From NCBI GenBank assembly GCA_048887225.1, contig JBHLJY010000003.1:32001-96000 (forward strand): a DNA stretch of 64,000 nucleotides, written 5' to 3'. A model generated the notes under the pieces. That model saw nothing but the letters and a program-made list of their open reading frames with translations. It was not told the DNA's origin and made no database searches. Shown piece after piece: positions 30,319 to 33,136 of this stretch. Positions within the stretch are counted from its first letter, which is position 1; each line of letters begins with the position of its first letter. The translations under genes and the position numbers were made by a program. The stretch is from Candidatus Hodarchaeota archaeon. Its GTDB lineage: Archaea; Asgardarchaeota; Lokiarchaeia; Sigyniarchaeales; SOKP01.

Positions 30319-31143
30319 CTAACATACTAAACAATTTTCTCTCTTTTCTAAAATATAACTTTCTAAAGTGTTGGAAAATAGGTCAAATATGATTCGATTT
30401 GGGCAATCTTTTCTATGGATTGCTTGAATTAATATATTCACTGCTAAAGTCGAAGAAACCATTGCTGTTAGAATCATAGTTGCTCCAAATTCTAGATTTT
30501 TAAAATCATGGTTCTCCAGTTCTTTCCAATCTATTTTCTCGAATGATAAGATATTATCTTGTGAAAATTTTTTAACCATTTGTTTACTCCTCACAGAACA
30601 CAAAATTGCTTGAAGACATTCGTAACACGGTTTATTTCCGTCTGAAGCTTGATATAGAATCATCCCCGAATATCCAGAAAAAGGGTCAGTTCCACTATAA
30701 ATCATTGGTTTCCCTAGTTTTAAACATACAATACCAACTAATGATCTCTTTATTTCTGGTAAATCTAAACTATTCATGATAAAATCACTTTCCTTAACGA
30801 TTTCTACTGTTTTTTGCCAATCCTCAAAAATGTCGTAATTGTAGGCTACGATTTCTGAAGATAAATTATCCAAACGATCTAATGTATTTTTTGCTACGTT
30901 GGCTTTATTCTTTCCGATATCTTTCTTTGAATAAAGAGTTTGTCTATTTAAGTTTGAGGCCTCAACGATGTCGTAATCAACTAAAATTATTTTTTTAAAT
31001 CCAATTCTCGTAGCTAATAATGCAATATTGCAACCTATACCTCCAATCCCTAAAATAGACAAAATCGACGATCTTATTTTATTCTGCGAAAACCATGGTA
31101 TTTTTTCTTGACGGGAGAAAAATCTATTATTATATTTACTCAT
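30319..31143 (-). CDS. ThiF/E1-family adenylyltransferase with UBA2/SAE2-like motifs
   Basis: FSRQ, GIGGIGC, DYDIVEASNLNRQ, MNSLD, PMIYSGT, GYSG, CYEC and terminal CLVC. Start moved to the ATG at 31143. Confidence 0.9.
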   Translation of the reverse strand: MSKYNNRFFSRQEKIPWFSQNKIRSSILSILGIGGIGCNIALLATRIGFKKIILVDYDIVEASNLNRQTLYSKKDIGKNKANVAKNTLDRLDNLSSEIVAYNYDIFEDWQKTVEIVKESDFIMNSLDLPEIKRSLVGIVCLKLGKPMIYSGTDPFSGYSGMILYQASDGNKPCYECLQAILCSVRSKQMVKKFSQDNILSFEKIDWKELENHDFKNLEFGATMILTAMVSSTLAVNILIQAIHRKDCPNRIIFDLFSNTLESYILEKRENCLVC

Positions 31144-31220
31144 AATTAATGAGAAAAAAGGAGTAAAGAAATATAAAAATAACAAATTTAAATAATAAAA
31201 AATTATAAAAAAAAAAATTT

Positions 31221-31481
31221 TTAAATCAAAAATCCTCCTGCTTGCGTAGCCATAACAGTTATTACGTCTTTTTTAGGGTGAATCCCGATTTTAGCAAATT
31301 TTAAATTATCTGGTAGTACCTTTCCTTTAAAAATAAATTGAATTGCCAAGATAGGATTCAATTTATATTCTCTCTGAACTGATTTTTTGATATCAGCAAT
31401 ATTTTGATTAGGATCTACCTCAATTAATTTAATAGCTTGGTCTGGAGGGACACCAGTAAGTCGGAACCTATATTGAGTAAT
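31221..31481 (-). CDS. Unannotated ubiquitin-fold modifier with SUMO-like QxGG C-terminus and FLI propeptide
   Basis: Hand translation: (I/M)TQYRFRLTGVPPDQAIKLIEVDPNQNIADIKKSVQREYKLNPILAIQFIFKGKVLPDNLKFAKIGIHPKKDVITVMATQAGG-FLI*. Beta-grasp motifs (EVDP..I.DIK, FIFKGKVL) and di-Gly. Only ATT is available as a start. Confidence 0.85.
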   Translation of the reverse strand: MTQYRFRLTGVPPDQAIKLIEVDPNQNIADIKKSVQREYKLNPILAIQFIFKGKVLPDNLKFAKIGIHPKKDVITVMATQAGGFLI

Positions 31482-31622
31482 TTTTTATCACTTTCTTTTT
31501 TTAGATTAGGATTTATTATATCTATTATATCATTTGAAATAATTAAGGATTTTTATCTAAATAATTATACTTAAGTTTGATGTTTTAAAATTTAAATCTA
31601 TTCCCAAGATAAAATTTGATCT

Positions 31623-31811
31623 TTAAATTCGAAATGGTTCGGGTGGTGGCGGGGGACCAGGTGGTGCTGGGCCTGGATGAATAGGAGGGCTTGGTCGAAA
31701 CGGAGGGCGTTGAAATAAGTTTTCTAAGGACGAAAGTCGATTTTCTAACTCATCTATTTTTTTTTCAATTTTATTTATCCTTTCCAATAAATTCGGGTTT
31801 TCTATTGACAT
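31623..31811 (-). CDS. 62-aa coiled-coil plus polyproline microprotein
   Basis: LLERINKIEKKIDELENRLSSLE heptads, then RPPFRPSPPIHPGPAPPGPPPPPEP. Locally GC-rich, consistent with coding. Confidence 0.75.
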   Translation of the reverse strand: MSIENPNLLERINKIEKKIDELENRLSSLENLFQRPPFRPSPPIHPGPAPPGPPPPPEPFRI

Positions 31812-32020: not shown

Positions 32021-33136
32021 ATGGAAAGCTGGAATATTTCTAAGAAGCTAAAAAGTGAGTTATTATCAAAAGCCAGTGGTATTGAAGATAATAGCAGAAG
32101 GATATTATTTATTCTAAGAAATCTAGGACCACAAAGATTTACCAATTTAATAAAATATTCCAATTTAAGTAGATCTACAGTCTCAAAATACTTAAATCTC
32201 CATAGTGAAAATAATTATATTGAACAGAAATTAATTCCCGATAAATTTTCCAATCAACGATATCGTGGATATGTCATAACAGATAAAGGCAAGGAAAAAC
32301 TCGGTGCGGAACCTTTAAAGTTAAAGGAAGAATTATTTATGATAAATCAGCTTAAAGAAAACGTTAAAAAGCTTGAAAATTTAATTTCTTTTTATAAAGA
32401 AATAGGTATTGAAGATTCTTTTATTTTTCATGTTGTACGAATTGTTTCAAAAATTGGAGAAAATTTCTTCGAAATTCAACAAGATAGAGATCTTTACCTT
32501 GCATTGTTTTATGTTTTTTACAATTCTATTCTTGGTCAAGGTGCTTTTGCTAAAAAATATTGGAGGTTTGATGAGTCAAAAGTAGAACCTCAAGAGTTAG
32601 ATAAAAATTTTCCTGGCTATAAATTGAATCTAGATCAATTTTGTGAAATTTACAATGTGGCACCAGAGGCTATTAATTACTTAGCAAGATTAAAATTAAT
32701 GTCAAGTGAATTAGGATTTTATTTGATTAAACGTGAAAATGATGATTTCTTTTTTCACGAGGAAGATCTACTAGGAACAACAGCTTTACGCTTAATTAAA
32801 GACCGACTAATTGAGGAAATTATATATATTAATTCCGGATTCCATACAGAACTCTATGATTTAGATAAAATGGCAGCAGAAATAACAGAGCAATTAAAGG
32901 AAATGGGAATAATATGGGAGGCGATCCAAGAACAATTTGAAATATTAATTTTGAATCTTATTATAAAAAATTCTATCGATATGGGCTTTTTAGAAACGGA
33001 TAGAAAAAAACTAATGGAGAGAATTTCAGAATCAAAAAAATTAACTAACTCAATAGAAGGTAGAAAACTTAAAGAGAATATTTTGGAAGGATTTAATATA
33101 CAAAAAGATTTGAATATTCTTACAATCATAAAATAA
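32021..33136 (+). CDS. Winged-helix (ArsR/MarR-like) transcriptional regulator with C-terminal helical region
   Basis: ILFIL...RFTNL...LSRSTVSKYL...YVITDKG. Confidence 0.75.
   Translation: MESWNISKKLKSELLSKASGIEDNSRRILFILRNLGPQRFTNLIKYSNLSRSTVSKYLNLHSENNYIEQKLIPDKFSNQRYRGYVITDKGKEKLGAEPLKLKEELFMINQLKENVKKLENLISFYKEIGIEDSFIFHVVRIVSKIGENFFEIQQDRDLYLALFYVFYNSILGQGAFAKKYWRFDESKVEPQELDKNFPGYKLNLDQFCEIYNVAPEAINYLARLKLMSSELGFYLIKRENDDFFFHEEDLLGTTALRLIKDRLIEEIIYINSGFHTELYDLDKMAAEITEQLKEMGIIWEAIQEQFEILILNLIIKNSIDMGFLETDRKKLMERISESKKLTNSIEGRKLKENILEGFNIQKDLNILTIIK

Follow-up and report, generated by a model that had tools for sequence, protein, structure and literature searches.

A probable AUU-started ubiquitin-like modifier gene and its compact E1-like neighbour in a Lokiarchaeal genome

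When a gene for a ubiquitin-like modifier and a gene for an E1-type activating enzyme stand side by side in an Asgard archaeon, do they form one minimal modification system, or are they two separate things that have become neighbours? The question is raised by positions 30319 to 31481 of a 64,000-nucleotide stretch of DNA, called the window here (G000:C3:32001-96000), which belongs to a 3.27-Mb genome (G000) of about 30% GC and 98% completeness. Going by the public names of its homologues, the genome falls into Promethearchaeota/Promethearchaeia, the Asgard archaea of Lokiarchaeia type. The minus strand of this segment carries an unannotated 86-codon reading frame with a ubiquitin-like product and, downstream of it, a gene for a short member of the E1 family, referred to below as the compact E1. 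An initial annotation read the pair as a minimal module of a proto-SUMO modifier and a UBA2/SAE2-like E1 near the root of the SUMO/ubiquitin split. The evidence leans, on balance, towards another account, in which a Lokiarchaeal ubiquitin gene started at AUU and an accessory compact E1 of the ubiquitin system are two separate things side by side.

The hidden reading frame is real, as the initial annotation had claimed. On the minus strand, the frame from 31481 to 31221 is open for 86 codons and is then closed by TAA; its translation reads ITQYRFRLTGVPPDQ...DVITVMATQAGGFLI (also given as ITQYRFRLTGVPPDQAIKLIEVDPNQ...FIFKGKVLPDNLKFAKIGIHPKKDVITVMATQAGGFLI). The product passes the Pfam ubiquitin model PF00240 with 37.4 bits against a cutoff of 25.4, and the same model scores above its cutoff in 30 of 30 aligned family members. 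The AlphaFold2 (AF2) model (predicted local distance difference test, pLDDT, 89.2) is a beta-grasp fold with the order beta-beta-alpha-beta-beta-short helix-beta. In Foldseek, ubiquitin ranks first, with query TM-scores (TMq) of 0.72-0.75 and target TM-scores (TMt) of 0.80-0.83, followed by Caldiarchaeum ubiquitin (TMq 0.73) and then SUMO1 (0.66-0.69). The protein is also the best ubiquitin homologue of its own genome. Pfam, AF2, Foldseek and identity to orthologues agree in assigning 31221..31481 (-) to the 86-amino-acid (aa) precursor, plus stop, of a ubiquitin-family modifier with a predicted mature length of 83 aa, and the gene is that of a known Lokiarchaeal ubiquitin-like modifier. Public records name the protein "ubiquitin-like protein", e.g., in Ca. 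Lokiarchaeum ossiferum. Literature searches turned up no paper dealing with this particular family or with the compact E1, and none that describes near-cognate starts in Asgard archaea.

The initial annotation had further described the modifier as SUMO-like. In pattern, its tail DVITVMATQAGG does resemble the SUMO1 tail DVIEVYQEQTGG, and in some species the precursor continues beyond the di-glycine, which would fit a SUMO-type precursor. Nevertheless, nothing but the short QxGG pattern points toward SUMO. The SUMO-type Pfam model Rad60-SLD (PF11976) reaches 20.0 bits, below its cutoff of 23.8, whereas the ubiquitin model passes. The family profile gives its best scores to the ubiquitin-like (UBL) domains of MDY2/GET5 (34 bits) and RAD23 (26 bits), and SUMO1 (17.3 bits), mono-ubiquitin (16.9) and Rub1 (16.7) are effectively equal; Foldseek, for its part, favours ubiquitin. 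No match to Peptidase_C48 (ULP/SENP, PF02902) was found in the 98% complete genome, in which six JAB/MPN genes are present.

The C-terminus deserves a closer look. All 30 aligned orthologues share the invariant segment TVMATQAGG, behind which the chain continues for 0 to about 20 residues that vary; such a combination marks a modifier that is processed and conjugatable. In the present gene, the codons of the C-terminal di-glycine of the mature protein, Gly82-Gly83, lie at 31233..31238 (-), and those of the three-residue tail FLI, which a protease is predicted to remove, at 31224..31232 (-). The C-terminal Gly-Gly of a conjugatable modifier is contained in the sequence as the invariant QAGG and would be exposed by the predicted processing.

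The distribution of the modifier also bears on its proposed place near the SUMO/ubiquitin split. With the family profile, it was found in 133 of 400 Asgard genomes, all of them in seven families (f1-f7) of a single class, and the other 26 families of the set gave no match. Within its order, a six-frame search recovered it in 35 of 41 genomes, with identities of 72-100%. Hence, instead of a proto-SUMO, the gene represents a class-wide and known Lokiarchaeal ubiquitin-like family. The genes neighbouring it fall to 44-80% identity in relatives; for instance, in G006 and G009 the modifier is 98-99% identical, compared with 80% for the next gene and 59% for HycI. Judging from these identities, the modifier evolves at a far lower rate than the genes around it, with very strong purifying selection on the protein, and is about as tightly conserved within one Asgard class as ubiquitin is in eukaryotes.

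Why, then, do standard gene callers overlook so conserved a gene? The lack of a canonical start, suggested by the initial annotation, proved to be the reason: no in-frame ATG, GTG or TTG occurs before codon 46. Translation probably begins at an ATT codon at 31479..31481 (-). A Shine-Dalgarno-like motif, GAAAGTGAT, is located 5 nucleotides (nt) 5' of this codon (31487..31495, minus strand). The 3' end of the genome's 16S reads GGATCACCTCCT, and GTGAT peaks 5 nt before starts genome-wide, which is the same spacer as at the ATT. In the orthologues, the aligned Met codon is ATG, GTG, TTG, ATT, ATA or ACG, with ATT in most members of genera g1 and g11. Each of these start codons has GGAAGTGAT, GGTGTGAT or AAGGTGA 4-7 nt in front of it, and the stop-to-stop frames usually open just 1-3 codons before the start. 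Moreover, the start region has the same sequence, without a gap, in contigs of an independent sediment sample. The orthologue alignment, the spacing and the independent sample suggest AUU as the start codon of the modifier, with the Shine-Dalgarno motif ahead of it. A gene overlooked by standard callers thereby has its annotation mended.

A frame that is broken or recoded, through an extra A in the A6 run that arose by sequencing error, in a pseudogene or as a programmed +1 frameshift, would also leave the gene without a regular start. Such an origin finds some encouragement in a GTG at 31491-31489 that lies one base out of frame, the corresponding GTG being in frame in G008, G004 and G022, where it would yield MIKITQ.... 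It is nonetheless extremely improbable. The out-of-frame layout is common to at least five species of the genus, whose spacer sequences differ, and the spacer varies in length by indels, as non-coding sequence does. Because this length varies, some species have the upstream GTG in frame and others do not, and the GTG is in all likelihood simply part of the Shine-Dalgarno motif, whose GTGAT is optimally spaced. The Met codon itself is ACG, ATA, TTG or GTG in other species, the independent-sample contigs show no gap at the start region, and purifying selection on the protein is very strong. The orthologue layouts and the independent contigs led to the rejection of a sequencing error or a frameshift at the A6 run.

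Near-cognate starts were also noticed in other genes of the genome: uS10 (ATA, G000:C43:7605-7907 (+)), TFB (ATT, G000:C4:216785-217753 (-)), an FAD amine oxidase (ACG, G000:C1:77150-78571 (-)), an ABC ATPase (CTG, G000:C6:137496-138239 (-)) and rubrerythrin (ATT, G000:C4:137940-138467 (-)). In these five genes, the Pfam domain begins 5' of any ATG, GTG or TTG, and a Shine-Dalgarno-like motif stands 4-7 nt before the near-cognate codon; initiation of this kind looks genome-wide. NCBI table 11 lists ATT, ATA and CTG among its initiators, and in E. coli, infC and pcnB start at AUU behind a Shine-Dalgarno motif. The modifier gene resembles those two in having a conserved near-cognate start at optimal spacing from a strong Shine-Dalgarno motif. 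It differs from them in its setting, an Asgard archaeon whose lineage appears to extend the habit to numerous genes, uS10 and TFB among them, and to include ACG. The locus adds a well-documented case for AUU, AUA, ACG and CTG starts in Lokiarchaeia, which bears on every automated proteome of that group.

The second gene of the pair extends from ATG 31143 to TAG 30319 (30319..31143, minus strand) and encodes a compact E1-like adenylyltransferase (P0002) of 274 aa plus stop, identified by Pfam ThiF (PF00899, 142.6 bits), AF2 and Foldseek. The motifs quoted in the initial annotation are all there (GGIGC, SNLNRQ, MNSLD, PMIYSGT, GYSG, CYEC and NCLVC). The family alignment, A2, keeps GxGGxG, D56/D58, NLNRQ, K80, D127, C140 and two CxxC pairs. 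On the minus strand, the GxGGxG nucleotide-binding loop (G32-G37, with G32, G34, G35 and G37 invariant) is encoded at 31033..31050, and the adenylation motif NLNRQ (N64-Q68), invariant and aligned to SNLNRQ of SAE2, at 30940..30954. The invariant four-Cys zinc site consists of a first CxxC (C173, C176; 30616..30627) and a second one at the C-terminus (C271, C274; 30322..30333). From this conservation, the enzyme is predicted to retain every residue needed for ATP binding and for adenylation of a C-terminal glycine.

A catalytic cysteine is another matter, as C140 and the four zinc ligands are the sole invariant cysteines of the family. Cys182 in the crossover region (30598..30600 (-)) falls in an alignment column that holds C, P, N, D, T or V; it is not conserved and is unlikely to be a family-wide catalytic cysteine. 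The AF2 model (pLDDT 91.8) comprises the adenylation fold alone, with a crossover insertion of about 35 aa and with neither a Cys domain nor a ubiquitin-fold domain (UFD). The chain ends at the second CxxC (residue 274), where a canonical E1 has its C-terminal UFD.

The claimed likeness to UBA2/SAE2 stood in one respect and fell in another. The motifs align with human SAE2 in HMMER, and in a single-sequence search of the PDB, SAE2 is the top match (74 bits), followed by Uba1 (70), MccB (70) and MoeB (60); this ranking is the best argument for a SUMO-type E1 that the gene itself offers. The family profile, by contrast, ties MccB (89 bits), MoeB (88) and SAE2 (87), with UBA5 at 70.6 bits, and the fold is that of UBA5 (6h78), ThiF, MccB and MoeB, which lead the Foldseek matches at a TMq of about 0.76, while SAE2 ranks 47th. 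Besides the absence of a Cys domain and a UFD, no SAE1-like partner accompanies the enzyme. Two other E1s of the genome are, by their scores and their eukaryote-like AACT Cys motif, far more similar to UBA1, UBA2 and UBA3 than the compact E1 is. A 408-aa E1 with AACTVVGVP scores 126 bits to both SAE2 and UBA3 and is encoded in a canonical operon of Ubl (118 aa), E1 (408 aa), E2 (175 aa) and JAB (265 aa) at G000:C2:177246-180340 (-). A 526-aa E1 with AACTLKGLP scores 133 bits to UBA1 and lies in a second cluster, E2...E1(526). The 118-aa Ubl of the canonical operon has an acidic N-terminal extension, ends in ...IPASTAG (Ala-Gly, not Gly-Gly) and matches ubiquitin weakly (23.9 bits).

As the initial annotation had noticed, the compact E1 also differs from the MoeB-like gene at 39998. 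This window gene (39998-40747) is of the ordinary MoeB/UbaA type, with 250 bits to MoeB and 195 to UbaA, for which P0002 reaches just 93 and 55 bits. P0002 stays below all NCBIfam cutoffs (ThiF 93.4 vs 275, UbaA 54.8 vs 450). In a maximum-likelihood (ML) tree, it falls into a superclade (support 100/99) that excludes both MoeB, the genome's own included, and the canonical Asgard E1s. The compact E1 is a distinct and rare subfamily of zinc-binding ThiF-fold adenylyltransferases. Its orthologues occur in eight of the 400 Asgard genomes (seven genera, three families), and about 30 clusters of such proteins are present in the protein collection.

What links the two genes is first of all their position. 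The spacer measures 77 nt, with the E1 downstream on the same strand, and it contains the T-tract pointed out in the initial annotation, a run of 11 T at 31217-31207 (T11; 31207..31217, minus strand). Archaeal oligo-T tracts act as terminators, and this run is likely to be the terminator of the modifier gene. A 1-nt length variant of T11 was observed among contigs of two sediment samples. Independent sediment-sample contigs run from the 5' end of the E1 across the spacer into the 3' end of the modifier; together with the gap-free start region, they show that the adjacency and the start region are real and no assembly artefact.

The adjacency was expected to be conserved. It is found in G000 and G002 only, which are sister species, and is absent from five further genomes that have both genes, unlinked, and from seven metagenome contigs. 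In G018, a contig end cuts the compact E1, and the adjacency is unreadable there. A combination of tblastn and a six-frame hidden Markov model (HMM) search found no hidden modifier gene beside the other compact E1 orthologues. The pairing of E1 and modifier is local, confined to two sister species, and not an ancestral SUMO system. The initial annotation had itself proposed to abandon its idea if the modifier grouped with known Asgard ubiquitin, Urm1 or SAMP clades and the E1 with plain MoeB/ThiF, if the adjacency was not conserved, or if the E1 did not activate the protein. The modifier belongs to a known family and the adjacency is not conserved; by the annotation's own criteria, its central claim is contradicted and not supported, and a minimal proto-SUMO and UBA2/SAE2-like module near the root of the SUMO/ubiquitin split has become most improbable. 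A tempting but unsupported story is thereby removed.

If the two genes are instead a modifier of the Lokiarchaeal ubiquitin system and an accessory enzyme, as is preferred here, the following course of events can be proposed. Translation from AUU would give the 86-aa precursor, which a protease, probably a JAMM/MPN enzyme of the genome, would trim to 83 aa ending in QAGG. The freed Gly would be activated and then conjugated. In most relatives, activation and conjugation would be performed by canonical Asgard E1/E2 machinery encoded elsewhere, which must serve there because the modifier is present without the compact E1. The compact E1 would most likely have an accessory role within the Lokiarchaeal ubiquitin system, in which it would adenylate a ubiquitin-like protein but form no thioester itself. 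A lineage-specific gene order would have put it right after the modifier in the two sister species, probably as a separate transcription unit. Modifier and compact E1 constitute a small co-expressible pair, which bears on whether modifiers of the ubiquitin type can be activated without an E1 thioester.

The role assigned to the compact E1 draws on its gene contexts in other lineages. In three genomes of its distant clade (41-44% identity), G163, G164 and G168, the E1 gene has a JAMM/MPN gene on one side and a gene for a vWA+RING (Ssl1-like) protein on the other. The cluster occupies positions 5743-11368 of L065 (G168:C6:261000-280000), 318-5082 of L066 (G163:C23) and 6-3262 of L067 (G164:C190). 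Its JAMM proteins have 470-490 aa with a coiled-coil tail, and its vWA+RING proteins about 395 aa. A gene for an E2 (172 aa) adjoins the cluster in G163 and G168, and a 409-aa E1 is also present in G168; no ubiquitin-like open reading frame (ORF) was found within the three loci. In the present genome, it adjoins the modifier gene. Two independent contexts tie the compact E1 to the ubiquitin system, which makes a role in the activation of a ubiquitin-like protein the best guess.

Several observations weigh against this role, and most of them would suit a coincidental neighbourhood produced by local rearrangement, in which the compact E1 acts on a ThiS/MoaD/SAMP-type carrier, on a tRNA-related substrate or on a 65-aa protein. 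Without a conserved Cys, the classical thioester-forming function of an E1 is impossible for the compact E1, and no ubiquitin-type E1 scores higher with its family profile than MoeB and MccB do. The genome encodes at least five ThiS/MoaD-type proteins that could be alternative substrates. Confined to G000 and G002, the adjacency amounts to a single evolutionary event, and the T11 run speaks against co-transcription of the two genes. In G009, a species of the same genus, the gene order is PilT-EndA-HycI-modifier-wHTH without any E1; as such species carry the modifier alone, the modifier needs no compact E1. Finally, in the closer E1 clade (58-69% identity), the conserved order is E1 - 65-aa helical protein - (HycI) - EndA - PIN/PilT ATPase, seen in six of six metagenome contigs, none of which has a modifier gene. 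The helical protein that follows the compact E1 in those six contigs has 61-76 aa and begins with MAWGGSLN (L043 4909-5106, L044 4899-5129, L104 3337-3534, L106 3411-3626, L107 3333-3530); it is missing from G000. On the other side, the three genomes with the E1 between JAMM and vWA+RING genes belong to two other families, and the E2 beside this cluster in two of the three and the full E1 in one speak against coincidence. None of the genes for the ThiS/MoaD-type proteins lies near the compact E1, and the window already encodes an ordinary MoeB/UbaA-type enzyme for sulfur carriers. A merely coincidental neighbourhood is thus a serious possibility, if a less probable one than an accessory E1 of the ubiquitin system.

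The distant cluster also invites the question of whether the compact E1 might be an auxiliary subunit of the canonical Asgard E1, in a heterodimer like SAE1-SAE2 or NAE1-UBA3. The presence of compact E1, 409-aa E1 and E2 in the cluster of G168 would suit such an arrangement, as would the lack of a catalytic Cys of its own. In SAE1 and NAE1, though, the ATP-binding and adenylation residues are not fully intact, while those of the compact E1 are. Its fold, moreover, matches homodimeric enzymes, and it is absent from about 98% of the Asgard genomes that have canonical E1s. An auxiliary subunit is accordingly a rather remote prospect, and an accessory enzyme that adenylates by itself is still preferred.

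The wider kinship of the compact E1 extends beyond archaea. A profile search of 1.84 billion representatives returned 82 clusters at E below 1e-30, whereas a protein language model (PLM) atlas search with the compact E1 retrieved generic ThiF clusters only. The next-nearest full-length relatives include proteins of Paramecium sonneborni (on a 783-kb contig) and Paratrimastix pyriformis (on a 302-kb contig); further eukaryotic relatives come from Syssomonas, Salpingoeca, Ploeotia, Leptophrys and Apiculatamorpha. One relative, from a Tara cluster, is encoded on a giant-virus-like contig together with MutS and glycosyltransferase genes. The protist and giant-virus-like members (P0168, P0175, P0179, P0180, P0182, P0184, P0217; L108) form a strongly supported clade of the same subfamily, the protists among them coming from several supergroups, and they have a four-Cys zinc site and a crossover insertion (IL..x..IS/W motif) in common with the compact E1 of Asgard archaea.

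In the ML tree, the superclade is made up of an Asgard clade (87/45), a eukaryotic clade (100/99) and a third clade (100/100); sigma-70, transposase and toxin-immunity genes in its neighbourhood mark the last as bacterial. The free tree search joins bacteria and eukaryotes (93/80), and a forced union of Asgard archaea and eukaryotes is equally likely (delta lnL 0.39, p-AU 0.52); the tree favours no single branching order of the three. A bolder reading would regard the subfamily as cysteine-less, zinc-binding E1-like enzymes shared by Lokiarchaeia and diverse protists, of which the eukaryotic clade derives from Asgard archaea and which work thioester-free, with the adjacent Lokiarchaeal ubiquitin as substrate. 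This must be considered doubtful. Were the eukaryotic clade to descend from Asgard archaea, it would represent a further eukaryote-type Ubl-activating enzyme of Asgard origin. Irrespective of its origin, a compact E1 subfamily without catalytic cysteine has been defined, which gene context connects with the ubiquitin operons of Asgard archaea and which has relatives in many protists.

The conserved gene-order partner of the modifier is not the E1 but a 62-aa microprotein. Encoded directly 5' of the modifier gene on the same strand (31623..31811 (-)), it combines a coiled coil with a polyproline stretch, the Pro-rich tail being PPGPPPPPEP, and tblastn detected it upstream of the modifier in the loci of 11 relatives from at least four genera at 52-94% identity. 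The divergent neighbour at 32021..33136 (+) encodes a 371-aa protein with N-terminal winged-helix matches. By locus comparison, this protein adjoins the modifier in most of the family-f1 loci fetched (36-81% identity in relatives), and in a locus of another family, there was one weak match of 23%. Its Pfam matches to HTH_45, ArsR and MarR are all below their cutoffs. The MoeB/UbaA-type gene (minus strand) stays 4-14 kb from the modifier in many relatives, a case of conserved regional synteny. In some relatives, UBL domains 40-59% identical to the modifier are fused into ORFs of 220-1500 aa, e.g., G004:C31:12861-13097, G006:C70:3444-3608 and G037:C630:1617-1865; there are none in G000. In agreement with the initial annotation, none of the genome's E2 or JAB matches lies inside the window, where RING E3 genes were not searched for.

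Compared with known systems, the locus shares with SUMO and SAE1-SAE2 the Q-x-G-G end after DVIxV in the modifier and the motifs GGIGC, SNLNRQ, NALD and CYEC, which align with SAE2, in the compact E1. It differs from them in lacking any SUMO-specific sequence or fold signal in the modifier, and in having no heterodimer partner, Cys domain or UFD for the enzyme and no C48 protease found in the genome. The compact E1 is closer in build to the enzymes of the MoeB-MoaD, ThiF-ThiS and archaeal UbaA-SAMP pairs: its adenylation domain is compact, at about 250-275 aa, and carries a zinc site of four Cys, ThiF and MoeB match its fold at a TMq of 0.76, and it would, by analogy, adenylate a protein with a C-terminal Gly-Gly. 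In contrast to those enzymes, it lies far below the NCBIfam cutoffs, forms a separate clade and carries the crossover insertion of about 35 aa, and its neighbour is a PF00240 ubiquitin-family protein, not one of the ThiS/MoaD family. With UBA5 of the UBA5-UFM1 system, its best Foldseek match (6h78, TM 0.76), it has in common the compact build and the absence of a separate Cys domain. UBA5 has a catalytic cysteine, which is without a conserved counterpart in the compact E1; the profile scores 70.6 bits to UBA5 vs 88 to MoeB, and the partner is not of the UFM1 type.

The nearest comparison is with the ubiquitin systems of Asgard archaea and Caldiarchaeum, in which gene clusters encode ubiquitin, E1-like, E2-like, RING E3 and Rpn11/JAMM proteins (PMC5654768; PMC9192718). 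The present locus departs from them in that the modifier gene is not clustered with E2 and JAMM genes but lies beside a compact E1 that has neither a conserved catalytic Cys nor a UFD, and in that the AACT Cys motif is found in the cluster-embedded 408- and 526-aa E1s of the genome and not in the compact E1. The similarities are nonetheless considerable. The modifier is a beta-grasp protein of the ubiquitin family with a GG end, Caldiarchaeum ubiquitin is among its top structural matches, the genome has E1, E2 and JAMM clusters of its own, and in G163, G164 and G168 the compact E1 itself is located inside such a cluster.

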